Counted from the first letter of the stretch, positions 17,099-35,627 are shown. The stretch is 48,204 nucleotides of DNA from an uncultured Candidatus Saccharibacteria bacterium (GCA_964550225.1 CAZJXT010000001.1:1-48204), one strand, 5' to 3'. The notes: a model not told the origin generated them from the letters alone. Made by a program: numbers and translations.

Positions 17099-17114
17099 TG
17101 ACAAATCTTTTTTC

Positions 17115-17145
17115 AAAACACCCTCTTTTCAAGGAGGGTGTTTTG
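17115..17145 (+). terminator. Rho-independent terminator
   Basis: caccctc (17119-17125) pairs with gagggtg (17134-17140), then TTTT. Confidence 0.7.
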
Positions 17146-17169
17146 TGGTATAGTATTAAGACATTATTT

Positions 17170-18003
17170 ATGTATCATCATATTGCTAAAAAATCACTGG
17201 GTCAAAACTTTCTCAACAATCAAGCAATTATTGATAAAATCATAACTGCCGCAAGTCCAACTACTACTGAAACAGTTTTAGAAATAGGTCCTGGAAAGGG
17301 AATTCTCACAAAATCTCTTGTTGCTTGTGCTGGTACTACCATTGCAATCGAAAAAGATAATGGTCTCTTTGCTCATCTCGGTGAATTATTTGAACAAGAG
17401 GTTAATCAAGGAAAACTTTCTCTGACTCATGGAGACGCTCTTGATTTTGACCCTGAAACATTAAGATCTTACGGGTCTTATAAACTTGTTGCTAATATTC
17501 CTTATAATATTACTGGTGCTATTATTGAAAAATTTCTCTCATGCTCATTTCAGCCAACAATGATGGTTTTAATGGTTCAAAAAGAAGTAGCTGAACGTAT
17601 TGTTGCAAAAAATAAAAAAACTGGAGGCCGCGGAAAAGAAAGCATTTTGTCTATTGCTGTAAAAGCCTATGGGGAACCAGAATATATTTGCACAGTAAAA
17701 GCAGGTAATTTCACTCCGGCACCCAAAATAGACTCTGCGGTAATAAAAATTAACAATATTTCTCGAGAGAAATTTTTGAATAAGCATCACGAAGAGGTCT
17801 TTTTCCAAATAATGAAGGCCGGTTTTGCGCATAAAAGAAAAACCCTCGCAGGAAATTTGAAAAACATTCTCGAACCTGAACTTGTAACTGCAATTCTTTC
17901 ATCAAGTAAACTTTCTCCATCAACGCGAGCTGAGGATTTGGGGATTAATGACTGGCTTGTATTGGCACACTTGGTATATAATAACCAATATGTCACTGAA
18001 TAA
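17170..18003 (+). CDS. rsmA: 16S rRNA (adenine1518/1519-N6)-dimethyltransferase
   Basis: KKSLGQNFLNNQAIIDKI, LEIGPGKGILT, ANIPYNIT. The start is set at MYHHIAKK. The track start 17029 overlaps the upstream gene and terminator. Confidence 0.9.
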   Translation: MYHHIAKKSLGQNFLNNQAIIDKIITAASPTTTETVLEIGPGKGILTKSLVACAGTTIAIEKDNGLFAHLGELFEQEVNQGKLSLTHGDALDFDPETLRSYGSYKLVANIPYNITGAIIEKFLSCSFQPTMMVLMVQKEVAERIVAKNKKTGGRGKESILSIAVKAYGEPEYICTVKAGNFTPAPKIDSAVIKINNISREKFLNKHHEEVFFQIMKAGFAHKRKTLAGNLKNILEPELVTAILSSSKLSPSTRAEDLGINDWLVLAHLVYNNQYVTE

Positions 18004-18904
18004 TGTTCCAAGTTCATATACCAAAAACTATCTGCCAAGTAAAAATATTCTTATTATAATTGGGATTCTTGTGTTTGCAGGAATTCTTTATTTTGTAGGG
18101 CCAAAAATTTATAATTTTTATCAAGAAAATAAAGGTCGTATTAATTTATCAGGAAACCCACCAGAACCTCTCATTGCATCATCAACAACAACTAATGATC
18201 TAGATAAAGACACTGATCGAGATGGCATTCCTGACTGGAAAGAAACCCTATTTGGACTTAATCCAAAACTACAGGACTCAAACGGTGACGGAACACCAGA
18301 TGAATTACCTATGATTAACGGAACCTCTGCAGGAGATCTCATCAGTATTCCTGATATTGGTAAATTTACTCTTTCTATTTATGATACCCTTGCAACAGGG
18401 GGAGTTGCAGCAACACCCGATCAGTTAGAAAACGTAACAGCAGAAAAAATGCTTGTGTATGCCGAAAACCTAGAAAAAGGATTGAAACAATACAAGATGG
18501 TTGATATTACACTTACTGATTCAACCAAAGAAACTATGGCTACATATCACCAAACCATTGTTGGTATTGCTAATAATGCACCAGATGTTGGAATGTTTAC
18601 AAAAAACACTCAGGAGTATTTTTTGAAAAATGGACCTACCCCTACCAAAGAAATTACTTTTCTTAAAACAACTATTACGAAACTTCTTGCGACACCTGTT
18701 CCAACACAAGCAAATACACTTCATTTAGAACTCATCAACAGTGCATATGTTCTTCTTCAAATACTTGAACTTCCTATTGAAAAACGATCTGATGAATTAA
18801 ATTCTTATGCCTTGTCGCTCATTGCTCAAAAAAATATTAACCTTGCTGCAAAAACTATTTATAGCATTCAAGCGCTCGGAAATATTTATAAACTCAACCA
18901 ATAA
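17990..18904 (+). CDS. Membrane-anchored protein with TSP3-like Ca-binding repeats (first gene of the T4SS-like locus)
   Basis: TM helix ILIIIGILVFAGILYFVG. DKDTDRDGIPDWKE...DSNGDGTPDE (DxDxDG repeats). Overlaps the rsmA stop by 14 nt. Confidence 0.5.
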   Translation: MSLNNVPSSYTKNYLPSKNILIIIGILVFAGILYFVGPKIYNFYQENKGRINLSGNPPEPLIASSTTTNDLDKDTDRDGIPDWKETLFGLNPKLQDSNGDGTPDELPMINGTSAGDLISIPDIGKFTLSIYDTLATGGVAATPDQLENVTAEKMLVYAENLEKGLKQYKMVDITLTDSTKETMATYHQTIVGIANNAPDVGMFTKNTQEYFLKNGPTPTKEITFLKTTITKLLATPVPTQANTLHLELINSAYVLLQILELPIEKRSDELNSYALSLIAQKNINLAAKTIYSIQALGNIYKLNQ

Positions 18905-18925
18905 TCTTGCAATTAATGTAATCCT

Positions 18926-21649
18926 ATGAAAAAAAATATTTTTATAAAAATAATAATCCTTAGTTGTGCACTATTTCCACTGTTATCATTTGCAGAGTCT
19001 CCTGTATTGGATGCCGGAAACGCTGGAACTCACGGAGCAAATCTTGCAACCAACGCAAACACTACAGCTCAACAAGTTCTAAAAACATTGAAGGATTATG
19101 GACTTGATCAGGTTGCTTATGTACTCGCTCAAAAACTCGGACAAAAAATGTCCACTCTTGCGATCAACAAAGCAACCGGTGGGGCAAGTGGTGATAAAGA
19201 TCCAAACTTTGTTCAAGATTTTGGAGATGTCTTAACTCAAATAGAACAACAAGAAAAAGATATTCTTTCTTCTCAACTCATGCTCAGTAATAACCCTTTT
19301 GCAAAAGATATTGCAATCAACATGATTGGAGGAAAAGACCAGGACGGAATCTTTCCAGGTTTTACTTTAGGTGATGCTGTCCAGGGTGAAGTAGATTGGC
19401 AAGATGTTGGAAACGATCTTACTTTAGCTGGAGCAAACGGACTAAATTTTTATGGACAACTAGGACTTCCACAAAATACTCCTATGGGAGCAGGAATGAT
19501 TGCTCAGGCAAAACTTGCCTCTCAGATTAAATCAAAGGAAGATATTAAAAAATTAAAACTCACGAGTTCTGGATTTCTCCCTCAATCAAAATGTAATTCA
19601 AAAGTTTCTGACTATGTAAACAATGTCAGCGCTATCATTGGATCTCAAAATCAAGAATTTGATGATCCTGCAAAAGCAGCAGCCTACCAAGAAGCTGTTG
19701 CAAAGAAAAATAACGCAAGTATGCAAGGGATGACGAATGATCTTTCAGGATGTATCGAAGAAATGATTAGTAATCCGCTAGAAACTACTGCAAAAATCAC
19801 AACCGAAGCTGGAAAATTCGGTATGGATATGACAAAAAATATTACTGGTTGGGGGCAAATTGTTGCAGGAGTATTCGTTTCACTGTTCAATGGTTTCATT
19901 AATGAAGGACTTTCATCACTCAAAGCAGATTATGGGCAGATGAAGCAGGCAAACACTGGAGGACCTGAACAAATCAACACAACATCTACAGGGCAACCTA
20001 CTAATAATTTTGCAAACACTCCGTTTAATATTATCGACCTAAAAAATGATTTTGAACCAGCATTAGAAGGTACTCGTAAAAATATTAAATCTCTATCAGA
20101 AGCTCGGCTCTATCTTGAAAAAACACCTGCTCGACTTGCAGTTCTTGATATGTGTATTCCTGGACCCGACGAAATCGGTCTCAAGAAACGATTAGTTGAC
20201 TACTATTCTCAACAAACTGACTGGTTGATGAAAAAATCAATCATGGGGAGTGGTAGTGACCAAGAAAAAACAAACGCATACCAAGAAGAGATTCTCAAAA
20301 TAATTGAACAAGACTATGCTGTTTCTGAAAGTGAGAGAACTCGAGACATGCTCGACGGAACTCGTAACATTCCAGGAGTTGCAGTTATGAAATCAATGGT
20401 AGGAACATTTAGTACCAAGAAGAAAAATTATGCAGGTGTTCTTGAGTCTCTCAATAAGTCATATGACACCGAAATTAAACTTCAGGGAATTATTACTGAA
20501 CTTCGAAAAAACCTTACTTGGTTACGAAATCAAAATATTCCTGGCTTAAACACTATCCCAGATCTTATATTTACAAAAGAAGAGTGGACTGGTCTTCCTC
20601 AAAATATTAAAGATACTGCATATAACTGGGCTCTCACAAATACTACAGGCGCAACTGCAGTGACAGGGGATGATGCACGAAGAGATTTCGTTATTGCTAC
20701 TACGTGGAGATTATGGGAATATCCAGTACAGTTTATTGTAGGAAACCAATGGCCTGATGATACCGATGGTGCATCAGCCCTTGCTGAAGAATTTCTTATG
20801 AATAAAAATAAGGTTCGTGCAATCTACAGTTCTCTAAAAAGCAATATTCCGTCTGATTGGGAAATAGAACAAAATGAACAATCTCGTGATTCTTATAAAC
20901 TAGGAATCACTCGAATTGATGAACTCATTCATGATTGTAATAAAATGCGCGAATTGTTCTGGGGAACAAATGATAACGGTGCCTTTCATGGAAAAACAAA
21001 ACAGCAAATGCTTGCTGACCTCCTTGCAAATCGTAATACCTATTTCAAATCAACGGAGTTAAAAAATAATCTCTCATTGCCAAGTATTTTAACAACTGAT
21101 AGAACCCCTGAGGAAGATGGATGTCTTCCAAACCCACCTCAATATCAAGCAAGTGATTCTACTGGTAAAAACTTTGGAGATCATGGATGGTCAGGATTTA
21201 ATTATTCGTGTTACGGAGGATTTGGTCATATTTATGGAGTACGAGACGACATTGGAGATCACACCTTTAATCAATGGCTCGATAATGCATCTAATATTTA
21301 TCAAGCAATACCATCTCCATTTAACGTTTCCGATATTTATTGGAAAGGGCGTATTGTTAACATGATCCCTGAAAATGATACTGATGGGGATGGTCTGCCT
21401 AATGAAATTCCTTCTATGCCATTTTCTGTAGGATGGACAGTTCAAGAACTTCCTACAGGGCAACCTGATAAAAAAGATGGTGGACACTCTCGAGCTTTAT
21501 ATTGTCGTATGAGTTCTGTATTAGCAACCTATGCAAAATGGAGTGCGACTCTTGATCGGGAAAGTAAAAATATTTACTGTTCATCAAAATGGGCCGACGT
21601 TTCAATATCTGAAGCAATTGGGCTCTTTATTCTTGATCAGCTTAACTAA
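18926..21649 (+). CDS. Large secreted protein of unknown function (907 aa) in the T4SS-like locus
   Basis: Signal peptide MKKNIFIKIIILSCALFPLLSFA. One NDTDGDGLPNE repeat. No recognised catalytic motif. Confidence 0.55.
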   Translation: MKKNIFIKIIILSCALFPLLSFAESPVLDAGNAGTHGANLATNANTTAQQVLKTLKDYGLDQVAYVLAQKLGQKMSTLAINKATGGASGDKDPNFVQDFGDVLTQIEQQEKDILSSQLMLSNNPFAKDIAINMIGGKDQDGIFPGFTLGDAVQGEVDWQDVGNDLTLAGANGLNFYGQLGLPQNTPMGAGMIAQAKLASQIKSKEDIKKLKLTSSGFLPQSKCNSKVSDYVNNVSAIIGSQNQEFDDPAKAAAYQEAVAKKNNASMQGMTNDLSGCIEEMISNPLETTAKITTEAGKFGMDMTKNITGWGQIVAGVFVSLFNGFINEGLSSLKADYGQMKQANTGGPEQINTTSTGQPTNNFANTPFNIIDLKNDFEPALEGTRKNIKSLSEARLYLEKTPARLAVLDMCIPGPDEIGLKKRLVDYYSQQTDWLMKKSIMGSGSDQEKTNAYQEEILKIIEQDYAVSESERTRDMLDGTRNIPGVAVMKSMVGTFSTKKKNYAGVLESLNKSYDTEIKLQGIITELRKNLTWLRNQNIPGLNTIPDLIFTKEEWTGLPQNIKDTAYNWALTNTTGATAVTGDDARRDFVIATTWRLWEYPVQFIVGNQWPDDTDGASALAEEFLMNKNKVRAIYSSLKSNIPSDWEIEQNEQSRDSYKLGITRIDELIHDCNKMRELFWGTNDNGAFHGKTKQQMLADLLANRNTYFKSTELKNNLSLPSILTTDRTPEEDGCLPNPPQYQASDSTGKNFGDHGWSGFNYSCYGGFGHIYGVRDDIGDHTFNQWLDNASNIYQAIPSPFNVSDIYWKGRIVNMIPENDTDGDGLPNEIPSMPFSVGWTVQELPTGQPDKKDGGHSRALYCRMSSVLATYAKWSATLDRESKNIYCSSKWADVSISEAIGLFILDQLN

Positions 21650-21661
21650 TAGTAGTATTAC

Positions 21662-21688
21662 AAAAAACTCCCAAAAGGGAGTTTTTTA
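21662..21688 (+). terminator. Rho-independent terminator
   Basis: actccc-aaaa-gggagt followed by T-run. Confidence 0.75.
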
Positions 21689-21731
21689 CTTCTCTTTTTT
21701 TAATTTCAGTAGTACAATATTACATAACATC

Positions 21732-24347
21732 ATGAAGCAAAAATTTTTTGCAAAGATTGCCATAGCTCTCATTATTTTCAGCGGGGTGATTTCACCAAGC
21801 CTTAGTTTTATTTCGTCAACTTTTTCTACCCCTCATGCCTATGCAGGTACAACAACAGTAGCACCTAATACTGATGCTATTAATACACAAAATCAACAGA
21901 CTGAAAATACTATTTCTGCGCAATCTGCTGAATGTGGGAGTCTTGATTTATTCTGTGCCCTTGGTAAATTTTTTTCATATATTCTACTCTTTGTTCCAAC
22001 CATAATTACAACTATAACAGGAATGCTCTTTGATATGAGTATTTGGCACTCACTGCAAAGTAGTACCTATACTAAATATGACGGACAGGTTGGAAACGAA
22101 GGCGTTGTGGTAACTGGTTGGAAACTTGTTCGCGATTTTACTAATCTTTTATTTATATTTGCATTATTTGCCATTGCTTTTAGTCTTATTTTAAATGTTA
22201 ATTTCGGATTAGAGCCTAAAAAAACCATTGCTCGAGTTGTTGTTATGGCGCTTCTTGTAAATTTTAGTTTTTTCTTTACACGAGCACTAGTAGATGTCAG
22301 CAATACATTAGCATTGAGTTTTTATAATAATATGACTAGTGCGCCAGAAATGAGCGCCGCATTGAGTGATTATGATACTGCTACAAAAAATGCCTTAGGA
22401 AATCCTGCTGGTTTTTATAAAAACGCAGGAGGAATTCGATCTATTTCAGCTGCTCTTATTTCAAAGATAAATCCTCATAATCTAGTTCTTTTAAGTACTC
22501 AGTCAAACTCAACAAAATCTTGGTCACTAAGTACTTTAGTGATAAATATTGTAACTTCGTTTATGGTCGCCGTATTTAACATATTTCTTATTTATATCTT
22601 TTTATCTGTTGCAATACTCTTTGTGGCGCGAACCATTGGTATTTATATTGCCGTTATTTTATCACCTATTGCATTTGTAAGTAGAACCATTCCTAAACTT
22701 GAAAATAAAAACTATATCGGATTTGATGACTGGCTCAAACAACTCGTCGGCATTGCATTTATGGGTCCAATTTATCTTTTCTTTTTATATATCACCATTC
22801 AATTTTTAAATATCGGTGGAACAAGTGCTGGTGATGGTCAAATATTTGCACTATCTGCTCAAATCTTCTTTAAATTACTTCTCGTTGGCTTCTTCATGTA
22901 CTATTCTAAAAAAATAGCTAAAGACATGTCTGGGCGAATAGGAGAAATGACCGTAAATGCTGTATCTTCTGTGGCAACAACAGGTGCCATGTTTGCAGGG
23001 GCAGCAGCAACAGGAGGTGCTGCGGGGATGCTCCAAATGGGGCGACGTATGGCAACCGATAGTATTAAATCAGGTGCAATCAATGTTGGAACGAGAATTC
23101 TTGGTGAAGAAAAGGTTGAAGAAATTCGAAAACGACAAGGAGTTCTTATGAATTTTGCCAATAATCCACGCGCAGCAATTAATGCCTCACGAAAAATTAT
23201 GGCAACAGGATCAACAGGGGAACCTACCACTCTTGGTAAAATAGGAGATGCATTCCGTTATGGAGGCGTAAGTAATCGAAAATTCGATCTCGAACAGGCG
23301 GCAAAAGCAGCAGATACTGCCAAAAAACAAAAAGCGGCTGCAGATGCTTTCAAAACGCGTAATATTGATAAAAAAATTGCTGAAAACAAAAAAGATTTTG
23401 ATGATGGTGTAAAAACCAAAAAAGAATACGAGGAAAAACTTAAAGAACTTGTTCTTGAGAAACGAGCGGTCTTAGATCCTACGTTATCTGAAAAAAATGC
23501 CAATGTGTCAGCTAATGCGACACTTGCGGCGGTTACAAAAGAACGTAAAGATGCTTCTCTCGATACAAAACTAGCAACAACTCAATCAAAAATTGTTGAT
23601 CTTGATACAAAAATTGCAACAAATACTACAGCTTTGGCAAACGCCGCAACAAAACTTGCTAATGCCGTAAAAGATCGACAACTTGCCAATAAAGAAGTTG
23701 CTGATAAAAAATCAGCACTTGCATCCCGTACCAATGACGATCAGCAACTCCAAGCAGAACTTGTTAGTGTAGAAAAAGAATTGGAAGGATTACCAAAAAC
23801 AGGCTTTGGAGTTGACCGAAACAAAATTAGTGCACTAGAACAAAAGAGGTCTGATATCAGTACTAAACGTAGTCTCATTGCTGCTGATATTGCAAAAATG
23901 TCTGTTGAATTAAATAACCTAGAACAACAAGAAAAGATTGCACTATCGGTTGAAGACGCAGCCATTAACCAAAAGGATTCTTTGGAAGCTGCTGATATTG
24001 AATTCAAGCGTAAGAAATCTGAGGCTGAAAACGAAAAAAATGTTTTGGAACAAGAAAAAATACGACTCGATAATGCAGTATCAGATGCTGAAAAAAATCT
24101 ACAAACTTCTGAAATAAATCTTATAAATAAAAAAGAGTCTATTTCTTTGCAAAACGAACTCGCCGCGAGAACTCGTGTAGAAAAAACAGATACTGATAAT
24201 AAAAAAAGAAATGATGAGCGTGTATCTGAGATACAAAAAAGATTACAGATGATTTCAACAGGAGGATCAGCTTCGCCTACTGGAACACCTTTTGGTGGAC
24301 CATCTTCTTCGAATGGAACAGGAACAGGAGGATCTGTACAGCCTTAA
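21732..24347 (+). CDS. VirB6/TrbL-like polytopic membrane protein with a long C-terminal coiled-coil/low-complexity tail
   Basis: Signal-like N-terminus, about 7 hydrophobic helices (residues ~140-470), then an A/K/E-rich coiled coil and a G/S/T-rich end. Position and topology match T4SS VirB6 analogues. The start is set at MKQKFFAK, after the terminator. Confidence 0.6.
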   Translation: MKQKFFAKIAIALIIFSGVISPSLSFISSTFSTPHAYAGTTTVAPNTDAINTQNQQTENTISAQSAECGSLDLFCALGKFFSYILLFVPTIITTITGMLFDMSIWHSLQSSTYTKYDGQVGNEGVVVTGWKLVRDFTNLLFIFALFAIAFSLILNVNFGLEPKKTIARVVVMALLVNFSFFFTRALVDVSNTLALSFYNNMTSAPEMSAALSDYDTATKNALGNPAGFYKNAGGIRSISAALISKINPHNLVLLSTQSNSTKSWSLSTLVINIVTSFMVAVFNIFLIYIFLSVAILFVARTIGIYIAVILSPIAFVSRTIPKLENKNYIGFDDWLKQLVGIAFMGPIYLFFLYITIQFLNIGGTSAGDGQIFALSAQIFFKLLLVGFFMYYSKKIAKDMSGRIGEMTVNAVSSVATTGAMFAGAAATGGAAGMLQMGRRMATDSIKSGAINVGTRILGEEKVEEIRKRQGVLMNFANNPRAAINASRKIMATGSTGEPTTLGKIGDAFRYGGVSNRKFDLEQAAKAADTAKKQKAAADAFKTRNIDKKIAENKKDFDDGVKTKKEYEEKLKELVLEKRAVLDPTLSEKNANVSANATLAAVTKERKDASLDTKLATTQSKIVDLDTKIATNTTALANAATKLANAVKDRQLANKEVADKKSALASRTNDDQQLQAELVSVEKELEGLPKTGFGVDRNKISALEQKRSDISTKRSLIAADIAKMSVELNNLEQQEKIALSVEDAAINQKDSLEAADIEFKRKKSEAENEKNVLEQEKIRLDNAVSDAEKNLQTSEINLINKKESISLQNELAARTRVEKTDTDNKKRNDERVSEIQKRLQMISTGGSASPTGTPFGGPSSSNGTGTGGSVQP

Positions 24348-24360
24348 TATTGTTTATAAT

Positions 24361-24391
24361 AAATAAAACCCTTATCAAGGGTTTTATTTAT
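24361..24391 (+). terminator. Rho-independent terminator
   Basis: ataaaaccct-tatca-agggttttat. Confidence 0.7.
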
Positions 24392-24416
24392 TATAAGAAA
24401 TTGTTACAATATTTTC

Positions 24417-24938
24417 ATGACAACACTTTCTCCATCATTACAATCAATTCTTGATAATCGCTTACGTTATTTACCAGAAATAACCGGTCGCGCAATCGCA
24501 TCAATTGACTGGTCTTCGAAATTAATCACTATTGGAAAAAAATATGGCCTTCATATTGACGATATGGAAGATTTTCAAACAGTTGTTTTGAAATCTATGA
24601 TAGGACTTATTCCACCTGAAAAATTTGAAACTGAAATTATTAGTGCTGTTGCATTATCACCCATCGATACCGAAAAAATTATTCACGAGATTAACGATCA
24701 AATATTTGAACCTATTCATGATTTTGTAATAAATGGTGGTAAATCAGACCCCTTAAAAGCAACAGGATTAGAAGTAAGTGCAGCTCCATCTGAAACGATT
24801 TTTCCTAGTACTCATCATGAAGAATTGTCTCCGGTAGCTGATTCTAACTTGCTTGAGATACCAGCATCCCCAAAAACAATTCGCTCGAAACCAATGGTTT
24901 CTGGTGACTTTAGTGCTTTCTTTAATTCACAAAACTAA
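24417..24938 (+). CDS. Hypothetical soluble protein in the T4SS-like locus
   Basis: 173 aa ORF. -10 TACAAT at 24405-24410 lies 6 nt before the ATG. Confidence 0.5.
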   Translation: MTTLSPSLQSILDNRLRYLPEITGRAIASIDWSSKLITIGKKYGLHIDDMEDFQTVVLKSMIGLIPPEKFETEIISAVALSPIDTEKIIHEINDQIFEPIHDFVINGGKSDPLKATGLEVSAAPSETIFPSTHHEELSPVADSNLLEIPASPKTIRSKPMVSGDFSAFFNSQN

Positions 24939-24960
24939 TTTGTGATACAATACATACTAT

Positions 24961-25359
24961 ATGCGATTTGAGGTACCACAATTTATTGATGTTGAAGAAA
25001 AAATATTTGGCCCACTTACTTTTAAACAATTTATTTATCTTCTTGGAGGAGCTGGTCTTGCCTATGTTTCATATAAATTAATTCCTTTTCCTTTTTGGAT
25101 TATTGTATCGGGAGCGTTTGTAGCATTGGCACTCCTGTTGGCATTTTACAAATTAAACAATCGACCATTCATTGAGATTGCTCAAAATTATATTAATTTT
25201 AAACTCAAGGGGAAATTGTATATTTGGAAACGTACTCCTACTCAAATAAAACCAGTTGAAAAACCTATTGAGCCTACAAACGCTCAACCTACTGAAAAAA
25301 TTATTACTGGAAAAACAATTAGTGATCTTGCAAAAAATCTTGATATTCTTGATTCATAA
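24961..25359 (+). CDS. PrgI family protein (VirB3-like small membrane component)
   Basis: MRFEVPQFIDVEEKIFGPLTFKQFIYLLGG followed by two TM helices, the hallmark PrgI N-terminus. Confidence 0.8.
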   Translation: MRFEVPQFIDVEEKIFGPLTFKQFIYLLGGAGLAYVSYKLIPFPFWIIVSGAFVALALLLAFYKLNNRPFIEIAQNYINFKLKGKLYIWKRTPTQIKPVEKPIEPTNAQPTEKIITGKTISDLAKNLDILDS

Positions 25360-25363
25360 CTAT

Positions 25364-25996
25364 ATGGCAAACTCAACTCAACAATTTGTACCTATAAAGG
25401 AAATTCGTGATAATGTAGCAGTTCTTAAAACCGGAGAACTGCGTGCGGTGCTATTGTGCCAAGCTATTAATCTTGATTTAAAATCAACAGATGAACAAAC
25501 TGCTGTAATTTTACAATTTCAAAACTTTCTTAATAGTCTTGATTTTTCAATTCAAATTATTGCATCTTCTCGAAGACTTGATATTCGTCCTTATATTATG
25601 AAACTTGAAAACCGTCTTGAGCAGATCGAAGGAGACTTATTACGTATTCAAACCAGTGAATATATTCAATTCATTCAAAAATTCAATGAGAGTTATGATG
25701 TTATGTCTAAATATTTCTATGTTATTGTTCCTTATGGAGCACAAGCATTGATTGGTGAGAGTTTTTTAGGCAACCTCTTTAAAACAAAGAAAGAAACTAC
25801 GGGAGTTACTCAAAATAAACAATTTGAAGAATCGCGCAGTCAACTAGAACAGAGAATTGCTGTAGTAACAAGCGGCTTACAGAATCTAGGAATTGACTGC
25901 AAACAACTCGACACTCCAGCTCTTGTTGAGCTCTATCAAAAAACATTTAATCCTGGAGAATTGCACTCTACTGCTGGAGCAATGGGGCAATCATAA
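25364..25996 (+). CDS. T4SS-associated protein resembling the N-terminal domain of Gram-positive VirB4 (TcpF/TrsE-like)
   Basis: TQQFVPIKEIRDNVAVLKTGELRAVLLCQAINLDLKSTDEQ resembles the conserved VirB4 N-terminal motif. There is no Walker motif. Confidence 0.5.
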   Translation: MANSTQQFVPIKEIRDNVAVLKTGELRAVLLCQAINLDLKSTDEQTAVILQFQNFLNSLDFSIQIIASSRRLDIRPYIMKLENRLEQIEGDLLRIQTSEYIQFIQKFNESYDVMSKYFYVIVPYGAQALIGESFLGNLFKTKKETTGVTQNKQFEESRSQLEQRIAVVTSGLQNLGIDCKQLDTPALVELYQKTFNPGELHSTAGAMGQS

Positions 25997-26018
25997 AAAA
26001 CACCGTGGGTGTTTTTTA
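25995..26018 (+). terminator. Intrinsic terminator-like hairpin inside the T4SS-like locus
   Basis: aaaaaacacc-gtg-ggtgtttttt followed by more T. Confidence 0.6.
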
Positions 26019-26067
26019 TTTTTTTAAAATCCTTGGTAGTTCTGTTTTAATTTTGTATACTATAATT

Positions 26068-27900
26068 ATGAGTTTACTTGGAGATCTCTTTGGGTCAAAT
26101 AAAAAAAATACCTCTCTTGCTATTCCGGTACTTCCATCGGATATTTATAATGCGGCAACAATGGAATTGCAGGATGTTATTGCTCCAAGTGCTGTCGAGG
26201 TTGGTACTAATACTATAAAAATAGGAGATAAAATATCTAAAACATATTTTGCGATGTCATATCCACGTATTCTTACAACAGGATGGCTCGCGCCTATTGT
26301 AAACCTTGATAAAATATTTGATGTTTCTATTCATATTAACCCTGTAGACACTTCTAGTGTATTGAAAGATTTTCAAAAAAAAGTTGCTGAGGTAGAATCT
26401 CAGATTATCGGTCGCCAAAAAGCAGGAATGGTTCGCGACCCCCAACTCGATGCTGCATATCAAAATCTTGAATCATTACGCGACAGCCTCATGCAGGCAA
26501 CCGAAAAAATGTTTGATGTTGGACTCTATATCACTATTTATGCAAGTAACGAAAACGAATTATTTAAACTTGAAAATAAAATTCGTTCCGAATTAGAAGG
26601 AAAACAAATTTATCTCAAACCAGCACTTTTCCAGCAAGAACAAGGTTTTCGTAGTGTTATTCCTACAGGATCTGACGAATTGCGAATTACTAATAAACTT
26701 AATTCCGGACCTCTCTCCTCATTTTTTCCATTTATTTCAAGCGAACTTACTGACAATAAAGGAATTCTGTATGGAGTAAATCGACAAAATGCAGGACTTG
26801 TTATTTTCGATCGATTCTCAATGCCCAACTATAACTCAGTAATTTTTGCACGATCAGGAGCGGGGAAGTCTTATGCAACGAAACTAGAAATTCTCCGTAC
26901 GATGATGTTCGATACTGACGTATTGATTATCGACCCAGAAAACGAATATCAATATTTAGCCGAAGCAGTAGGAGGAAGATTTTTTAAGGTGTCACTATCT
27001 TCAAATAGCCACATTAACCCATTTGATCTTCCTAAGCCACTTCCTGATGAATCACCATCTGATGTATTACGCGCAAATATTACAAGTCTTATCGGTTTAT
27101 TTCGAATTATTTTAGGAGGACTTACTCCAGAAGAAGATTCTATTGTTGACCGTGCTATTACAGAAACCTACGCATTAAAAGATATCACCGCAGATACTGA
27201 TTTTACACAAATTCCACCTCCATTAATACATGATTTTGAAATGGTACTAAGGTCGATGGATGGTAGTGAGTCTTTGGTAGAGCGATTAAAAAAATATACC
27301 GAGGGAACATGGGCAGGGTTTATGAATCAGCCAACAAATGTTGATATTGATCAAAAATTAGTAGTATTTTCAATTCGAGACATGGAAGACGAATTAAAAC
27401 CTGCAGCAATGTACATCATTACTCATTTTATTTGGAACGCTGTTCGAAAAAGTCTTAAAAAACGGCTTCTCGTTGTAGATGAAGCTTGGGTTATGATGCA
27501 AAACGAGGAAGCAGCTAGTTTCTTGTTTGGGATGGCAAAACGAGGACGTAAATATTTCTTAGGACTTGCAACCATTACTCAAGATGTTGGAGATTTCGTA
27601 AAATCAAAATACGGAATCCCTATTATTACCAACTCTTCACTCCAACTTCTTTTAGGGCAATCACCAACCGCAATTGATACTTTGCAAACCGTATTTAACC
27701 TAACTGATGGTGAAAAATATGCACTTTTGGAATCAGGGGTAGGAGAGGGAATCTTTTTTGCAGGAAAACAACACGTTTCTATCAAAGTTATTTCTAGCTA
27801 TACCGAAGACCAAATTGTGAGCTCTGATCCTCATCAAATTTTAGCACTGAGAAAAGCAAAAGAAGATATCGCCTCATCTGATAGTGCGTTTGTGAATTAA
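26068..27900 (+). CDS. virB4: VirB4/TrsE-family type IV secretion ATPase
   Basis: IAPSAVEVGTNTIKIGDK..YFAMSYPR..TGWLAPIVNLD N-terminal domain. Walker A ARSGAGKSYATK. Walker B LLVVDEAW. ATITQD. Confidence 0.88.
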   Translation: MSLLGDLFGSNKKNTSLAIPVLPSDIYNAATMELQDVIAPSAVEVGTNTIKIGDKISKTYFAMSYPRILTTGWLAPIVNLDKIFDVSIHINPVDTSSVLKDFQKKVAEVESQIIGRQKAGMVRDPQLDAAYQNLESLRDSLMQATEKMFDVGLYITIYASNENELFKLENKIRSELEGKQIYLKPALFQQEQGFRSVIPTGSDELRITNKLNSGPLSSFFPFISSELTDNKGILYGVNRQNAGLVIFDRFSMPNYNSVIFARSGAGKSYATKLEILRTMMFDTDVLIIDPENEYQYLAEAVGGRFFKVSLSSNSHINPFDLPKPLPDESPSDVLRANITSLIGLFRIILGGLTPEEDSIVDRAITETYALKDITADTDFTQIPPPLIHDFEMVLRSMDGSESLVERLKKYTEGTWAGFMNQPTNVDIDQKLVVFSIRDMEDELKPAAMYIITHFIWNAVRKSLKKRLLVVDEAWVMMQNEEAASFLFGMAKRGRKYFLGLATITQDVGDFVKSKYGIPIITNSSLQLLLGQSPTAIDTLQTVFNLTDGEKYALLESGVGEGIFFAGKQHVSIKVISSYTEDQIVSSDPHQILALRKAKEDIASSDSAFVN

Positions 27901-27929
27901 AAATCATGGTATACTAAAACCATGATTTT
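27900..27929 (+). terminator. Hairpin (11-bp stem) after virB4 that overlaps the first ATG of the next ORF
   Basis: aaaatcatggt-atactaaa-accatgatttt. Confidence 0.5.
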
Positions 27930-28947
27930 TAATATGAAAAAAAATGTTTTTCTTGGAATACTTTTTATGCTTATTACAATCCCGGTCTTTACGTATGCTC
28001 AGGTACAGGAAAACATTCAGTCGTACGACACAATGGTGAATGAGGGAGACTTTGTTTTCGAAGTGAATCCAGAAAATCCAGGACCTAATGAATTAGTTAC
28101 TATTAAATTAACTAGTGACTTAGTTGATACAAATCGATACCCAATTACATGGACGGTGGATGGCATTGTTGTTGAAACGGGAATCGGAAAACGCACTATT
28201 CAAACAAAGACTAAAAATTATGGCGAGACAACTGTTGTAGAAATCTCAATTAAGCTTGCTGAGTCTACCGTTACTAAACGAATCGCACTCAGTCCAAACG
28301 ATTCAACTATTCTTTGGGAAGCAATTGATTCCTATGTCCCACCATTTTATCCAGGTAAAAAACTACCAAGTGCTGAAGCATTAGTTCGCATTGTAAGTAT
28401 TCCAAATTTTTTATCAAGTAAACTTTCAACAGCAACAAAAAATGCTGTGTACACTTGGACACGTAATAAAAGTGCTATCACAGAAGCGAGTGGCTATGGC
28501 AAAGATTTTATTCTCATCAAACATAATAAAATCAGAGAGAGTGAAATTATCGGAGTTACCAGTAGTAGTACCGATGGGAGCCGTGTAGCTAAAACAAATA
28601 TTGTTATTCCATTCTTTGATCCTCAAATTGTATTTTATACAAAAAATAGAGCAACGGGAATTACTGAACAAAATGCAATTTCATCGCTTAATTTAACAGC
28701 TCCTGTAACAACCTTGATTGCAACTCCTTATTTCTTTTCAACAGTTGATGATACTCCACAGTTTTTAAAAACAAAATGGACTATGAATAATAAAAAAATA
28801 AACCCTTCTGATGCGTCAAAACCAAATCGTCTCATTATTCAAAAACCAGAATCTTCAGGTTCTGCAACTATTGGAATATCTATTGAAAACCCAGGGACTC
28901 TATTCCAAACGGCTACTAAAAATATTTCTGTTTCATTCAGAAAATAA
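27922..28947 (+). CDS. Secreted protein of unknown function (alternative start 27934, MKKNVF...)
   Basis: Signal peptide MKKNVFLGILFMLITIPVFTYA. Beta-rich composition. Confidence 0.55.
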   Translation: MIFNMKKNVFLGILFMLITIPVFTYAQVQENIQSYDTMVNEGDFVFEVNPENPGPNELVTIKLTSDLVDTNRYPITWTVDGIVVETGIGKRTIQTKTKNYGETTVVEISIKLAESTVTKRIALSPNDSTILWEAIDSYVPPFYPGKKLPSAEALVRIVSIPNFLSSKLSTATKNAVYTWTRNKSAITEASGYGKDFILIKHNKIRESEIIGVTSSSTDGSRVAKTNIVIPFFDPQIVFYTKNRATGITEQNAISSLNLTAPVTTLIATPYFFSTVDDTPQFLKTKWTMNNKKINPSDASKPNRLIIQKPESSGSATIGISIENPGTLFQTATKNISVSFRK

Positions 28948-28956
28948 TTTATCCTT

Positions 28957-30702
28957 ATGAATTTCTCTTATATTAAAAAACTAATTTTTATTGTAGTAAT
29001 CAGTATTTTCGCTATTCCTTTTTCCGTCTATGCGCAACAAGCAGGAGGGGCAACTACGTTTTCTGGAAAAACGCCTAGCACGAGCACTTTTACTACAAAC
29101 ACTGAAACTGGAATAACTACTGGTACAAATGATTGCGAAATAATTTCTGCTGAGTTTTCACCATTCACAAACACCTCTTCAACAACCCAGGCAATGGAGG
29201 GGTTTTATAAAAGTAATATAGTTACTCCTATTATTGTAACCATAACTACCAAAGATTGTGCTCAGAAAAAAATTAAAGTTTCTCTCATGGAAAAAGATAA
29301 AGGTCCTGGTGTTAATATCTTTGATAGCCTTACAGGAGATGATCCCGTAAGCATTCTCAACAACAAAGAATTAACAGTTGGTCCTGATGAGCAAATAATT
29401 ATTAGTCTTCAGGCTGGTGAATCTGAATGTGAAACAGGCCAAACTATTCAAATAGGAAATGTTTTTCCTGACTGTGTTTATTATCTTCATATTGAAAATA
29501 GTAACGGTGTTGTTTTCGAAACCATGGATGATAATCTTGTTTTTAAACATGCCGGAATGCTTGCTTATGAATGTGATGTTTCTGATATTGTAGGAACTAT
29601 TATTACAGTAACAACAGCAGGAACACAAAGCGGTTGTCTTGATGATTGGAAATATACTGGAGACACCTCTCTTAAAGACAGTAGCAGTGTTACTCTCGAA
29701 GAAGCAGGGTCCCTCACTGACCCAAATTCTGCATGTGGAGACAATCCTGATTGTTATGAATTATTTGCAGGATTTGGAAAAGCTTTAGGTGAAAAATTTG
29801 CAACCGTAAAACCTTCAAGTCTTGGCGACTTCATCAATATGCTTATCATGTTTGCTATTGGTATCTTTGGAATTATTTTAATTGTCCGTATTTTCTTACT
29901 CGGGTTTCAAATAGCTCAAGATAAAAAAGATGGTAAAGTAGTCGCACTAAGTGATACTAAAGAAGAACTTTTTAAGGCAATCGGTGGATTCATTCTCTTG
30001 TTATGTATCTTTATTATTTTGCGAACGATTAATCCTGACTTGTTAAATCTTACACCAAGAATTGATGCGTTGTCTCTTGAGGTTAAAAGTCGTACTGATG
30101 ACCCTAATGTTAAATCATATGTTGATTCTATTGATACTTCAGAAATTACCAGTCATCCAGTTGATTATGACGATGAGACATTCTTAACCTATCTCGGACA
30201 TCAACAAGGTGCAGCAGGTGCAGCATCTATTTTGTGGGCGTACCATCGAGGATACTCATCAATTCCTAACACTACTCCATTTTTAAGTAACGCATCTATT
30301 ACAAATATGCGTATGCAAAAAAATTATTTTGGCTCAGGAACCGCCACTCCTCAAGCATTTCTTGATTACTGGTGGAAAAAAACCGAGGCAAATAAGAAAA
30401 AAACTGATGCTATTCCTGAAGAAATAAACAACGTCTTGAAAAAAGTTGCTGCTGATACCAACGTATCTCTCAAAACAATTCAAGTAATGTGTATGATCGA
30501 AAGTTTTGGATGTAGTAATCCCAATGCTGTAAATGGGAGCTATAAGGGGTTATTTCAAATGGGACCCACTGAATTTGCAACCTATAAACGAACTGGTGCC
30601 ACGAATATTTTTGACCCTTATGAAAACGCATATGCTGGAGCAATGTATTCGAAAAGTAATTATTCTTATATAAAAAACAAATGGAATAAAATACTTCCAT
30701 AA
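28957..30702 (+). CDS. Fusion protein: secreted N-terminal domain, T4SS pilin-like two-helix hairpin and C-terminal SLT lytic transglycosylase (VirB1-like)
   Basis: Signal peptide. FINMLIMFAIGIFGIILIVRIFLLGF...charged loop...GGFILLLCIFIILRTINP. SLT motifs MIESFG, YKGLFQM, NAYAGAMY. Confidence 0.65.
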   Translation: MNFSYIKKLIFIVVISIFAIPFSVYAQQAGGATTFSGKTPSTSTFTTNTETGITTGTNDCEIISAEFSPFTNTSSTTQAMEGFYKSNIVTPIIVTITTKDCAQKKIKVSLMEKDKGPGVNIFDSLTGDDPVSILNNKELTVGPDEQIIISLQAGESECETGQTIQIGNVFPDCVYYLHIENSNGVVFETMDDNLVFKHAGMLAYECDVSDIVGTIITVTTAGTQSGCLDDWKYTGDTSLKDSSSVTLEEAGSLTDPNSACGDNPDCYELFAGFGKALGEKFATVKPSSLGDFINMLIMFAIGIFGIILIVRIFLLGFQIAQDKKDGKVVALSDTKEELFKAIGGFILLLCIFIILRTINPDLLNLTPRIDALSLEVKSRTDDPNVKSYVDSIDTSEITSHPVDYDDETFLTYLGHQQGAAGAASILWAYHRGYSSIPNTTPFLSNASITNMRMQKNYFGSGTATPQAFLDYWWKKTEANKKKTDAIPEEINNVLKKVAADTNVSLKTIQVMCMIESFGCSNPNAVNGSYKGLFQMGPTEFATYKRTGATNIFDPYENAYAGAMYSKSNYSYIKNKWNKILP

Positions 30703-30727
30703 AAAACACCTTCATAGGGTGTTTTTT
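30701..30727 (+). terminator. Rho-independent terminator
   Basis: aaaaacacc-ttcatag-ggtgttttt. Confidence 0.65.
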
Positions 30728-30754
30728 ATATTTGTTCTATATTATAATAATCAC

Positions 30755-32329
30755 ATGCCTCCAGAAAAAAAATATGACCTCAAAAAAATAATTATCGTAG
30801 GGGTTTTACTTCTTGTTATTATGGGACTATTAGGATATTGGTTTTTTGTCATAAGAAAACCTGCTTTTAATGACCCATCTCAAACAAAAAATCTTTTTCC
30901 TTTCGGTGATAATCAAACCACAACATCTCTCACTGATCAAGGAAACACTCCTGGTATTGTAACTCCACCTCTTGGCGAAAATCCAATTAAGGTTACCGAA
31001 GGTGATAGGTTACGCATGGTTGCAAATTATCCTGTTACTGGATACTACTCATTTATTGAAAATAGATTGACCCCTCAACCAAAATTTGATGAAAAAACAA
31101 AAGAAACCATCGTATCTACATTAAATGTTCCTGTAAATATTTTACGATTTAATGTGAAAGAAAAAGGTTTTCTTATTGATGCAGAAATTAATACTGATTC
31201 AATTATTGTTTCTCAAAAAACAAAAACTGAGTTTCCTGTACCTGAAGAATTATGGTTTACTCGCGCAGGTAGTGGTTTTGTATTTAGAACCTGGAACGAT
31301 TATGAAAATACCATTGATTCATTTGTTGCATCACTTCCTGAAATTAAACCTCTTGGATATTGCGAAAAAACTCTTACTGGGATAGTCGCACAAGGATCCA
31401 AAAATGAAACCGTTAAAGAGTTACAAAAATATCTTGCTAAGAAACTCGCTGTGGTTATTACGGCAGATGGATCGTTTGGTGCCAAGACAACAACATTAGT
31501 GAAACAACTTCAAAACCTTTTTGCACTTCCTCAGACAGGAAAACTTGATGATCTTACCCGTGAAGCAATCAATGGAGACTGTCTCAATATTCAAACCGAT
31601 TACGCAAACAAAAACAAGGGACCCTTTGTTCTTACTGGAGCATTTCTCCCTTCAAATATTTTACGAGGAACCTCTTCGCCTGATGGAACATCTCTATTTT
31701 TCCTCAAAAAAAATAATTCTGGATCTGTTATTGGAACTCTTGCATCTGCAAACGGAACGAATCAAAAACCATTTTTCGAATCTCCTTTTTCTGAATGGAA
31801 CCCTGTATGGATTAATGAAAATCTTATTACGATGACCACACTGGCATCACGTGAAGCAAATGGATATCTCTATGGATTAAACCCAAAGACAGGAGACTTC
31901 AAAAAAATACTTGGTCCAATTCGAGGACTTACCACGAATACAAATCCTGACGGAACCAAGGTGCTCTATACGACCAGTACCGATAAAGGTATCATTACTC
32001 GTGTGTACACCATAGCGAACGGTAATTTACAAACCCTTGAAATGCCTACACTTGCCGAAAAATGTGTATGGAAAGACAATGTGATTATTATTTGTGCAAT
32101 ACCTCAAACTACACCTTCTGCACAATATCCAGATGCGTGGTATCAAGGACTTCTCAGTTTTTCAGATTCAATCTGGTCAATAAATACTGATTCTGGTGTG
32201 ACCAATCTTATTCTTGCCCCTTTGAAAGCATTTGATATGATCAAACCAGGATTAAGTCCTGATAAAAACTACTTTTTCTTTATTAATAAAAAAGATTCTA
32301 CGTTATGGTCATATCGACTCAATGATTAG
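30755..32329 (+). CDS. Membrane-anchored protein with a peptidoglycan-binding (PG_binding_1) domain and TolB-like beta-propeller repeats
   Basis: TM IIIVGVLLLVIMGLLGYWFFV. VKELQKYLAK...ADGSFGAKTTTLVKQLQNLFALPQTGKLD. Repeated SPDGT/NPDGT/SPDKN motifs. Confidence 0.65.
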   Translation: MPPEKKYDLKKIIIVGVLLLVIMGLLGYWFFVIRKPAFNDPSQTKNLFPFGDNQTTTSLTDQGNTPGIVTPPLGENPIKVTEGDRLRMVANYPVTGYYSFIENRLTPQPKFDEKTKETIVSTLNVPVNILRFNVKEKGFLIDAEINTDSIIVSQKTKTEFPVPEELWFTRAGSGFVFRTWNDYENTIDSFVASLPEIKPLGYCEKTLTGIVAQGSKNETVKELQKYLAKKLAVVITADGSFGAKTTTLVKQLQNLFALPQTGKLDDLTREAINGDCLNIQTDYANKNKGPFVLTGAFLPSNILRGTSSPDGTSLFFLKKNNSGSVIGTLASANGTNQKPFFESPFSEWNPVWINENLITMTTLASREANGYLYGLNPKTGDFKKILGPIRGLTTNTNPDGTKVLYTTSTDKGIITRVYTIANGNLQTLEMPTLAEKCVWKDNVIIICAIPQTTPSAQYPDAWYQGLLSFSDSIWSINTDSGVTNLILAPLKAFDMIKPGLSPDKNYFFFINKKDSTLWSYRLND

Positions 32330-32346: not shown

Positions 32347-32387
32347 TACGTAAAACAAAAACCCTTATTGGGTTTTTGTTTTACGTA
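32347..32387. terminator. 18-bp perfect palindrome, bidirectional terminator overlapping the yidC stop
   Basis: tacgtaaaacaaaaaccc-ttatt-gggtttttgttttacgta. The yidC stop codon lies in the loop. Confidence 0.75.
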
Positions 32388-33066
32388 GAATAAATTGTTC
32401 TTGAGCAATCATTGTAAGATTTGAAACAATCCAATACAGCGCAACAGCTCCAGGAACTGCATAGGCAAACAATGTGATCATGATAGGCATAGTATACTTC
32501 ATCGATTTTTGCATATTAGCCATCATTGCGCCCTGCATATCAGAGGTGTCTGGTTTTGTTTCAGGTGTTTGCATTGCAGGTGAATAATACATTTGTGCAA
32601 ATTGCGAAATTCCAGCAAGTATTGCAAGAATAATACTTTTAGCACTCATGTCTAATCCTAGAAACACTGTGTTCACCATTGCTGGTGCATGAACAAAACT
32701 ATAAAGACTTTCTGGGACAATAGTAGCCCCCGCAAGAAATACTCGATACAGTGCAATAATAACAGGAAGCTGAAGGAGGATCAGGAGACATCCAGCAAAC
32801 GGATTCGTCTTGTGCTCCTTGTACAATTCCATTAATTTTTGAGACTGTTCTTTTTGATCAGGGTATTTTTTTCTCAAGTCGTCTACAAGTGGCTGTAATT
32901 TCTTTTGTTCTATTTGTGAAACAATGGATTTATGTGACAGTGGGGCAAGTATTAATTTTACAAGTAACGTGAGTCCGATAACCGCAAGTCCGAGCGATCC
33001 TCCCAAAAGACCTGTGAGGACTACTAATGCATTATAAAGAGGGAGAAAAAAAATAGTATGAAACAT
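32365..33066 (-). CDS. yidC: YidC/Oxa1 family membrane protein insertase (short form)
   Basis: LTLLVKLILAPL, Q.KLQPL...YKEHK.NPFAGCLLILLQLPVIIALY. Synteny with yidD-rnpA-rpmH. Confidence 0.9.
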   Translation of the reverse strand: MFHTIFFLPLYNALVVLTGLLGGSLGLAVIGLTLLVKLILAPLSHKSIVSQIEQKKLQPLVDDLRKKYPDQKEQSQKLMELYKEHKTNPFAGCLLILLQLPVIIALYRVFLAGATIVPESLYSFVHAPAMVNTVFLGLDMSAKSIILAILAGISQFAQMYYSPAMQTPETKPDTSDMQGAMMANMQKSMKYTMPIMITLFAYAVPGAVALYWIVSNLTMIAQEQFILRKTKTQ

Positions 33067-33089: not shown

Positions 33090-33311
33090 CTACAAAGGGT
33101 CAGTAAAATTCTTTTGCCAAGGATGGCATCGTAATATCCTCCATAATGCCAAAAACCACCCCTTGATTGCACCATATCGACATATTGATATTATTGCATA
33201 TTCTGAACAACTTGATGCGCCATGAGCATAGAACATACAACTATTAGGCAATATTGGCCGAAAAACAATTCTATAAAAATAAATAGGGGATAGTGCTATT
33301 TTTTTAAACAT
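33090..33311 (-). CDS. yidD: Membrane protein insertion efficiency factor YidD
   Basis: YFYRIVFRPILPNSCMFYAHGASSCSEYA...YGAIKG..LALWRILRCHPW. Confidence 0.88.
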   Translation of the reverse strand: MFKKIALSPIYFYRIVFRPILPNSCMFYAHGASSCSEYAIISICRYGAIKGWFLALWRILRCHPWQKNFTDPL

Positions 33312-33625
33312 ATATCAACAAGATTTTGTTTAATCTCTTGAAAAGAAATATTTGTTTTATAAAAACTCTGTTTTGGAAAAACAGTAATGTATGAAACAGG
33401 TAATTGTTCTTTTATTGAACCTAGTATTTCATATACTACTCTTCGTGTTGCATTTCGAGCCACAGCTGTTTTCGCAATTTTCTGAGAAATAACCGCTGCG
33501 CATTTGGGGTTTTTTAAAGCGACATCATTATGAAAAACCACTCGAAAGAATTCATTTTGAAAAGTTTTCCCTCGAAGCACCTTGGGGAATTGTTTTGTTT
33601 CAATTCTATATTTTGAAGATAACAT
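33296..33625 (-). CDS. rnpA: Ribonuclease P protein component
   Basis: 109 aa basic protein immediately downstream of rpmH. FRVVF...AAVISQKIAKTAVARNATRR matches the RNase P protein RNR motif region. Confidence 0.8.
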   Translation of the reverse strand: MLSSKYRIETKQFPKVLRGKTFQNEFFRVVFHNDVALKNPKCAAVISQKIAKTAVARNATRRVVYEILGSIKEQLPVSYITVFPKQSFYKTNISFQEIKQNLVDICLKK

Positions 33626-33677: not shown

Positions 33678-33812
33678 TTAAATAGCAACTTTTGCACGAC
33701 CTTTTTGTCGTCGTCGTCGAATCATGTTTCTTCCTCCTGAGGTTGCTTGGCGACCCAAGAATCCATGAGCTCGTGCTCGTTTTCGTTTGTGTGGGTTATA
33801 AGTAAATGACAT
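33678..33812 (-). CDS. rpmH: 50S ribosomal protein L34 (not in the ORF track, 44 aa)
   Basis: Translates to [44 protein letters not shown]. Confidence 0.93.
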
Positions 33813-35600: not shown

Positions 35601-35618
35601 TTGAAATCAAGTCTCTTG

Positions 35619-35627
35619 TGCTATACT
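35619..35627 (+). promoter_or_regulatory. Extended -10 (TGCTATACT), 6 nt upstream of the dnaN ATG
   Basis: ttgTGCTATACTaaaaacATG. Confidence 0.55.

Follow-up and report, generated by a model that had tools for sequence, protein, structure and literature searches.

A type IV secretion locus beside dnaA in an uncultured bacterium of the candidate phyla radiation: predicted components and possible role at the host interface

Organisation of the locus

The sequence considered here is a stretch of 48,204 nucleotides from an uncultured Candidatus Saccharibacteria bacterium (GCA_964550225.1, CAZJXT010000001.1:1-48204), referred to below as the window. Between positions 17990 and 32329 it contains ten open reading frames (ORFs), all running in one direction on the + strand and separated by spacers of 4-82 nucleotides, which together encode a locus resembling a type IV secretion system (T4SS). 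An earlier note on this DNA had described ten co-directional genes at these positions, and both the ORF map and public gene calls bear this out. The public calls come from three metagenome contigs with identical sequence; they place the starts of the first gene at 17990, of the VirB6-like gene at 21732 and of virB4 at 26068, the same as in the note, and the start of the tenth gene at 30755. These are long ORFs at 35% GC, called identically in the public contigs and conserved in dozens of related genomes, and it is therefore clear that they are not chance ORFs. The genes are numbered g1 to g10 along the + strand.

The motor core

The ATPase of the system is encoded by g7 (26068-27900, +), which is a VirB4. 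It scores 364 bits with the NCBIfam CD1110 family (cut-off 325, E = 1.2e-108) over profile positions 183-734, and also matches Pfam P-loop_TraG (1.8e-23) and AAA_10. Both Walker motifs, A (ARSGAGKS) and B (LLVVDE, at residue 467), can be read intact from the sequence, as the note had proposed. The protein corresponds to a canonical VirB4 without its N-terminal third, and is of the monoderm CD1110/MPF-FATA type.

The N-terminus of the same profile (CD1110 positions 1-119) is matched by g6 (25364-25996, +, 210 residues), which also matches NCBIfam VirB4_plasma (6.2e-14) and TrsD/TraD (1.5e-7), and whose public gene call carries the TraC-like domain PF26593. Because g6 covers the part of the profile that the VirB4 ORF is without, it is identified as TrsD, a separate gene for the VirB4 N-terminal domain. 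The same arrangement, with TrsD as a separate ORF 5' of virB4, is seen in at least 25 related loci. The 210-residue protein had been counted among six proteins with no assignable function; it can now be removed from that list, while the other five are indeed without a T4SS assignment.

The small membrane protein encoded by g5 (24961-25359, +) is of the PrgI/VirB3 type and would be the membrane tether for VirB4. This assignment too was in the note, and Pfam PrgI confirms it above cut-off (2.1e-9, 38.2 bits against 27), with a transmembrane (TM) segment at residues 45-63. Judged by the profiles that they match, VirB4, PrgI and TrsD are all of the monoderm MPF-FATA type, and the best plasmid relatives of VirB4 are found on plasmids of monoderms (Firmicutes and Actinobacteria), at 28-37% identity.

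The VirB6-like protein and the hairpin-hydrolase fusion

The product of g3 (21732-24347, +, 871 residues) is an extended polytopic membrane protein of VirB6/TrbL-like type, predicted to have a signal peptide and about seven TM segments within residues 70-390. No Pfam model matched it in a search up to E = 10, and the VirB6/TrbL assignment made in the note is therefore not obtained from the window sequence directly. It is obtained through relatives. The membrane domain finds 58 of these, the more distant of which carry PF04610 (TrbL/VirB6) or PF19590. Residues 84-407 of g3 align with residues 73-358 of one relative, P0042 (BLASTP 4e-31), in which residues 142-341 match Pfam TrbL/VirB6 at 37.9 bits (cut-off 25.9). 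The C-terminal tail of about 430 residues is rich in Ala, Lys and Glu and has matches to coiled coils of the SMC/PspA type, including an SMC-type NCBIfam match over residues 505-840, in agreement with the coiled coil described previously. From the TM count and the positive-inside rule, the tail is probably cytoplasmic. Its length differs widely among relatives, the whole proteins ranging from 524 to 1330 residues.

The product of g9 (28957-30702, +, 581 residues) has a signal peptide, a variable, Cys-containing N-terminal domain of about 260 residues, a hairpin formed by two TM segments (residues 296-314 and 337-355), and a C-terminal SLT domain. Of the pilin-like hairpin and lytic transglycosylase proposed in the note, the SLT domain is found directly (Pfam, 24.5 bits against 21.3, 2.1e-5). 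The hairpin has no direct Pfam match in a search up to E = 10, and is instead recognised through a relative, P0066, which is 33% identical overall (BLASTP 1e-67) and whose T4SS_pilin domain (39.4 bits against 26.6) aligns with residues 289-360, approximately, of g9. PF18895 (T4SS_pilin) is present in 10 of 23 relatives. The relatives keep the hairpin but swap the C-terminal wall hydrolase, which is SLT, NlpC/P60 or VanY. As read from the sequence, g9 is a VirB2-like/VirB1-like fusion.

It is worth adding that in one relative, CAZUIQ010000001.1 (L003:12941-18029), the g9 slot is expanded, with an 819-residue copy followed by a second copy that is apparently split into a 528-residue N-terminal part and a 257-residue part carrying the hairpin helix and C-terminus. 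Together with the NlpC/P60 or VanY domains seen elsewhere, this suggests turnover of paralogues at this position.

The accessory proteins

The remaining five genes form an accessory set that is conserved in the lineage, and consists of a TSP3 anchor (g1), a 907-residue exoprotein (g2), a 173-residue soluble protein (g4), a triple-Ig stalk (g8) and a TolB-like peptidoglycan-binding propeller protein (g10). The first of these, g1 (17990-18904, +, 304 residues), is an accessory envelope protein with a TM anchor near the N-terminus (residues 20-38), a TSP3-type motif and a helical domain. An alignment of its relatives shows an invariant DxDxDGxxDWxE motif, and 9 of 11 relatives match TSP3_bac (best E 1.7e-11), through which the TSP3 repeat noted earlier is confirmed. 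The gene is syntenic in 11 loci.

The exoprotein g2 (18926-21649, +, 907 residues) has a Sec signal and is mostly helical. Its AlphaFold2 model has a mean predicted local distance difference test (pLDDT) score of 70, rising to about 90 for residues 370-907, and is built of long helical bundles, to which a small β-containing and Cys-containing domain is added at the C-terminus. There is no Pfam or NCBIfam match, none of 38 relatives among the matches listed carries a Pfam domain, and a Foldseek search with the model found nothing at E<=1e-3 in the PDB or BFVD. The family profiles of g2, g4 and g8 likewise found nothing among PDB sequences. On these results g2 has an orphan fold. It is fast evolving, and is a candidate for a distal or host-contact component. 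In g4 (24417-24938, +, 173 residues) there is no TM segment; an N-terminal part of about 105 residues is conserved, and the Pro-rich tail is variable. None of 14 family members has a Pfam match, and no PDB sequence was matched. The gene is syntenic in 15 loci and is 51-61% identical in the closest relatives.

The g8 protein (27922-28947, +, 341 residues) belongs to a widespread Patescibacterial family found directly 3' of virB4, which it adjoins in 24 loci. The family is very large: a search of representative clusters retrieves 2609 of them at E<=1e-3, and 2138 at the stricter E<=1e-10. The AlphaFold2 model is of high quality (pLDDT 92.8). In it a helix at the N-terminus, either an anchor or a signal, precedes three β-sandwich domains in tandem, which are of the immunoglobulin (Ig) or fibronectin type III (FnIII) kind. 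Foldseek matches are to generic tandem Ig/FnIII arrays (E about 1e-8), and 13 of 70 family members have weak BiPBP_C or PKD matches. On this model, g8 may function as a wall-spanning stalk or scaffold. Its position and N-terminal anchor made it a candidate for a VirB8-like protein, which is ruled out by the model, the domains being Ig-like sandwiches and not the NTF2 fold.

Finally, g10 (30755-32329, +, 524 residues) has a membrane anchor (TM residues 12-30), a PG_binding_1 domain (Pfam, 1.1e-10) and a C-terminal TolB-like β-propeller. The note had described it as a peptidoglycan-binding propeller protein, and this holds in both parts, the first directly and the second through the match of the family profile to TolB in the PDB (1.8e-6).

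The locus thus encodes an MPF-FATA-derived inner-membrane core, made up of a split VirB4 (TrsD plus ATPase), PrgI/VirB3 and an extended VirB6, and an envelope module, made up of the hairpin/lytic transglycosylase fusion, an anchored triple-Ig stalk, a peptidoglycan-binding TolB-like propeller protein, a Ca-binding TSP3 anchor and a 907-residue helical exoprotein.

Conservation, position and mobility

Relatives of VirB4 occur in 34 genome loci at 50-89% identity, all in metagenome-assembled genomes (MAGs) of uncultured bacteria, which are mostly labelled as Patescibacteria or candidate phyla radiation (CPR), with Nomurabacteria, Paceibacterota, Vogelbacteria, Portnoybacteria and others. The placement of VirB4 near the Patescibacteria is judged by this similarity (50-89% to the MAGs against at most 37% to any plasmid VirB4). 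The order ksgA, g1-g10, yidC, rnpA, dnaA, dnaN is kept in at least ten loci from Paceibacteria/Nomurabacteria, and the block PrgI-TrsD-VirB4-g8 is kept in many more.

In the window, the conserved left neighbour is rsmA/ksgA (17098-18003, +; Pfam RrnaAD 2e-52), which overlaps the start of g1. On the right are yidC (32365-33066, -), rnpA (33296-33625, -), rpmH (an L34 ORF at about 33678-33812, -), dnaA (33952-35307, +) and dnaN (35601-36734, +), all except rpmH being identified by Pfam. Two clusters of DnaA boxes lie at 33902-33948 and 35310-35516; the number of boxes over the whole window (15, against 16.6 expected) is not above chance, and it is only the clustering around dnaA that is informative. 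The cumulative GC skew has its minimum near 36 kb. Taken together, the box clusters and the skew minimum put oriC about 1.4 kb beyond the end of the locus.

A comparison with the closest genomes demonstrates that the proteins of the locus evolve at very different rates. VirB4 is 89% identical, TrsD 72-78% and PrgI 60-78%, the flanking KsgA and YidC are 59-72% and 57-74%, and DnaA is 33-50%, while the values for g8 are 40-52%, for g9 30-44%, for g2 26-42% and for g1 23-42%. That VirB4 is at 89% and DnaA at 33-50% indicates that constraint acts more strongly on the motor than on the replication initiator, with the exposed parts diversifying. We infer that this is the pattern expected of an important machine with host-facing surfaces.

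The VirB4, PrgI and TrsD profiles derive from monoderm conjugative elements, and the locus could on that account be an integrative and conjugative element (ICE) or its decayed remnant, the relaxase, coupling protein and integrase being either lost or encoded elsewhere. Pfam scans covered the ORFs of at least 100 residues in the window, including 30 large ORFs besides those of the locus. They identified no type IV coupling protein (T4CP/VirD4), relaxase, VirB11 or plasmid Rep, in line with the note, and no match to T4SS-DNA_transf, TraG-D_C or TrwB. There is no tRNA in the window and no flanking att-like repeat, the repeat pairs present being 16-34 nucleotides long and of chance size, and the GC content of the locus is that of its flanks, with no compositional break. 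A coupling protein, a relaxase and flanking att sites, which together would make the locus an ordinary ICE, were thus looked for in the window and not found.

The note had also reported no integrase, which is strictly speaking incorrect. A tyrosine recombinase is encoded at 1100-1996 (-), with Phage_integrase (1.6e-41) and an N-terminal SAM-like domain. It could be taken as evidence for an ICE, and relaxases do occur in some Patescibacteria (Quinonero-Coronel et al. 2025, PMC12102498). However, the enzyme is Xer-like, adjoins rpsO and stands among housekeeping genes about 16 kb from the locus, so that the conclusion is unaffected; and relaxases are almost absent across the phylum, being missing from most genomes (PMC12102498). 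Even where VirB4 identity is down to about 57-64%, the locus sits in one and the same place, between ksgA and yidC/dnaA, and the greater conservation of VirB4 than of DnaA points to a core gene that benefits its host. Synteny, composition and the lack of mobility genes in the window together lead us to reject an ICE, a reading which is largely refuted and to which we give only a very small probability. The view in the note that this is not a conjugative element is upheld, and conjugation by the locus is unlikely.

Comparison with known systems

The T4SSs of the Patescibacteria have been surveyed by Quinonero-Coronel et al. (2025, PMC12102498). Their VirB4 forms a clade nested in MPF-FATA, with TrsD as the most frequent partner, and the other parts are PrgI/VirB3, VirB6 and VirB2-like pilins. 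VirB1-like hydrolases are associated with virB4, particularly in Paceibacteria; most genomes carry VirD4-like (T4CP) genes, usually far from virB4; and in Paceibacteria and Microgenomatia the T4SS lies beside dnaA, dnaN, rnpA, ksgA and rpmH (PMC12102498). The present locus matches this description in architecture and context. It has an MPF-FATA-related VirB4, a separate TrsD, PrgI/VirB3, VirB6 and a putative VirB2-like pilin domain, a wall hydrolase near virB4 of the kind noted for Paceibacteria, and no relaxase or T4CP nearby, and it is chromosomal and beside the same five genes. It differs from the T4SS of Saccharimonadia in having no array of small stand-alone pilins, the sole pilin-like hairpin being inside the 581-residue hydrolase fusion. 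The accessory set (g1, g2, g4, g8 and g10) is not described in PMC12102498 or in PMC10633639.

There are also clear similarities to the Gram-positive MPF-FATA conjugative systems. VirB4 passes the cut-off of the CTn2 CD1110 equivalog and is divided in the manner of TrsD-TrsE of pGO1/pSK41, with its N-terminal domain on a separate protein, and as in PrgH-PrgI-PrgJ-PrgK of pCF10 there are a PrgI-type VirB3 and a VirB6-type channel, with a membrane-anchored wall hydrolase comparable to PrgK/TraG. Unlike these systems, the locus contains no relaxase, T4CP/VirD4, oriT or PrgB-type adhesin, and no recognised VirB8-like (NTF2-fold) protein; it is chromosomal, close to the origin and vertically inherited; and it has a putative VirB2-like hairpin, a part that the Gram-positive systems do not have.

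Taken with the conserved position, this comparison leads us to conclude that the locus is very probably a vertically inherited chromosomal T4SS of the Patescibacteria (CPR), from a Paceibacteria/Nomurabacteria-like genome, which acts at the interface between epibiont and host and not in conjugative export. The description in the note of a chromosomal, non-conjugative T4SS with a Gram-positive-type core is supported by the monoderm profiles, the missing mobility genes and the synteny with dnaA. The non-conjugative reading is right, and earlier publications had reached it for the phylum as a whole (PMC12102498; PMC10633639; review PMC12857230).

It has been suggested that the TfoX-like and ComM genes of the window are connected with the locus, which would then be a DNA-uptake machine of the ComB or Ced kind, working with TfoX, ComM and ComEC in natural transformation. 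The locus does resemble ComB of H. pylori and the archaeal Ced system in having a VirB4-family ATPase as its sole motor, no relaxase or coupling protein, and a chromosomal location. VirB4 has a CedB-like match (NCBIfam, 2.6e-8), which is weak and partial, similarity of this kind being inherent to VirB4/HerA ATPases, and members of the class ABY1 have their T4SS in one place with comF, recG and radA (PMC12102498). Both genes are indeed present in the window (TfoX_N at 3438-3785 and ComM at 9045-10580, Pfam), but they are 14 and 7 kb upstream, with unrelated genes on both strands between, and the suggested link is not upheld. Nor were the outer parts ComB7-10, or CedA, A1 or A2, detected with Pfam and NCBIfam. 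In addition, the T4SS cluster SEML1_0006-0019 of Southlakia epibionticum is essential for epibiotic growth as determined by transposon sequencing (Tn-seq), while deletion of comEC ends competence and not viability (Wang et al. 2023, PMC10633639; PMC12857230). As comEC is dispensable and the T4SS essential, the genetics of Saccharibacteria separate the essential role from ComEC-dependent transformation. We consider a transformation machine improbable.

A protein exporter, delivering effectors onto or into the host and possibly including g2 among them, would be comparable to Ptl, Brucella VirB or S. suis 89K. T4CP-less exporters do exist (PMC12102498; PMC12857230), the locus encodes large, fast-evolving proteins with Sec signals, and the interpretation preferred in the Tn-seq study is protein export or an alternative role (PMC10633639). 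However, the known T4CP-less exporters have VirB11 and outer-membrane parts, neither of which is found in the locus, and no effector, chaperone or secretion signal was identified in it. As for g2, it keeps its place in relatives and has the look of a structural part, not of a variable cargo. We regard export of this kind as somewhat less likely than not.

Transcription signals and other features of the window

Three terminator-like hairpins lie within the locus on the + strand. The first (21662-21687), 3' of g2, has an 11-bp stem followed by a T run, and is possibly an internal attenuator or the boundary of a sub-operon. The others are between trsD and virB4 (25993-26019) and 3' of g9 (30699-30729); they are near-identical (ATAAAAAACACC...GGTGTTTTTTAT) and share repeat D12. 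The three may attenuate transcription or divide the locus into sub-operons. An alternative GTG start for VirB4 at 26005 was considered and rejected: the hairpin at 25993-26019 overlaps it, so that ATG 26068 is favoured, no exact look-up match was found for the longer form, and the gene calls give the ATG. A further hairpin with an 18-bp stem (32347-32387) occupies the 35-nucleotide gap between the convergent g10 and yidC genes and overlaps both gene ends. It is probably a bidirectional terminator, for which the scan called only the - strand site, and it marks the end of the locus. The promoter scan of the window gave 64 sites against 71 expected, and is not informative.

Several observations concern the surroundings of the locus. 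A polytopic protein of 531-537 residues is encoded at 15485-17098 (+), 5' of ksgA as in some relatives (L001, L003); it has a UbiA-family prenyltransferase domain over residues 287-512 only, preceded by a hydrophobic N-terminal extension of about 280 residues without annotation. Downstream of dnaN, the GC content falls to 0.28-0.31 between 37000 and 42000. This part contains a 254-residue ORF without Pfam match, a methyltransferase, a SLOG/LOG-like protein, two divergent TrmB-family regulators (37946-38758, +, and 38792-39538, -) and thyA (40426-41267), and may be an acquired or fast-evolving segment. The thyA gene is apparently broken into at least three pieces. An N-terminal ORF of 135 residues matches positions 1-104 of the 266 in the Pfam model, and a short ORF for the middle and one of 77 residues for the C-terminus come after it in other frames. 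Either the gene is a pseudogene or the assembly contains a frameshift.

Possible function of the locus

A perspective from 2024 described the function of the Patescibacterial T4SS as "completely unknown" (PMC11665869). A preprint from 2026 has since reported tubular structures, possibly T4SS pili, at the parasite-host interface, together with feeding on host RNA (bioRxiv 10.64898/2026.06.21.733656).

The components of the present locus are consistent with the following mechanism. TrsD/VirB4, tethered through PrgI to the VirB6 channel, would power a conduit or a pilus-like assembly across the wall of the bacterium itself. The hairpin-hydrolase g9 would open the wall locally and seed or anchor the conduit, which the Ig stalk (g8), the propeller (g10) and the TSP3 protein (g1) could brace on its way through the wall. 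Host-specific contact would be made by the parts that face the host, namely g2 and the N-terminal domain of g9, which are fast evolving. For what passes through such a conduit, we tentatively favour the import of, or access to, macromolecules of the host, for example nucleic acids. This is ranked slightly above effector export, because ComB and Ced, in which VirB4 is the sole motor, are importers, and because the essential function in Saccharibacteria has no need of a T4CP homologue. That the locus forms only a pilus or an adhesin is quite unlikely. A more elaborate version, which is speculative and carries low confidence, is that the accessory set and the g9 fusion form an undescribed wall-spanning outer module, in which g2 would be the tip that recognises the host or breaches a membrane, and the machine would work backwards, taking in RNA or DNA of the host as a supply of nucleotides.

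A number of points weigh against our interpretation of the locus as a T4SS of the epibiont-host interface. The VirB6 and pilin-hairpin assignments are made from sequence only transitively, through relatives. The hairpin of g9 stands between extracellular domains of about 260 and 220 residues, and may be a mere membrane anchor that does not polymerise, and there is no stand-alone two-TM pilin ORF in the window. Roles for g1, g2, g4, g8 and g10 are drawn only from synteny and fold. The absence of a coupling protein and relaxase holds for this window, and a distant VirD4 or relaxase could be present elsewhere in the genome. Essentiality is known from one Saccharibacterium and not from this lineage. 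Finally, the + strand operon to the left of oriC runs towards the origin and thus head-on to the leftward replication fork, an orientation that is kept in relatives and that fits poorly with high expression or gene dosage as a rationale for the proximity to the origin.

Nothing in the locus is categorically new; it is a clean example from the Paceibacteria with a defined list of parts. What is added here is the correction concerning TrsD, the structural characterisation of g8, g2 and g10, the hairpin fusion with its swapped hydrolases, and the contrast in rate between the motor and the exposed parts. The Ig-like stalk model, the orphan-fold exoprotein and the hairpin protein with swapped hydrolase are targets for complex prediction, for the interpretation of cryo-electron tomography and for genetics, in a system that appears to be central to the host-cell living of a very large bacterial radiation.

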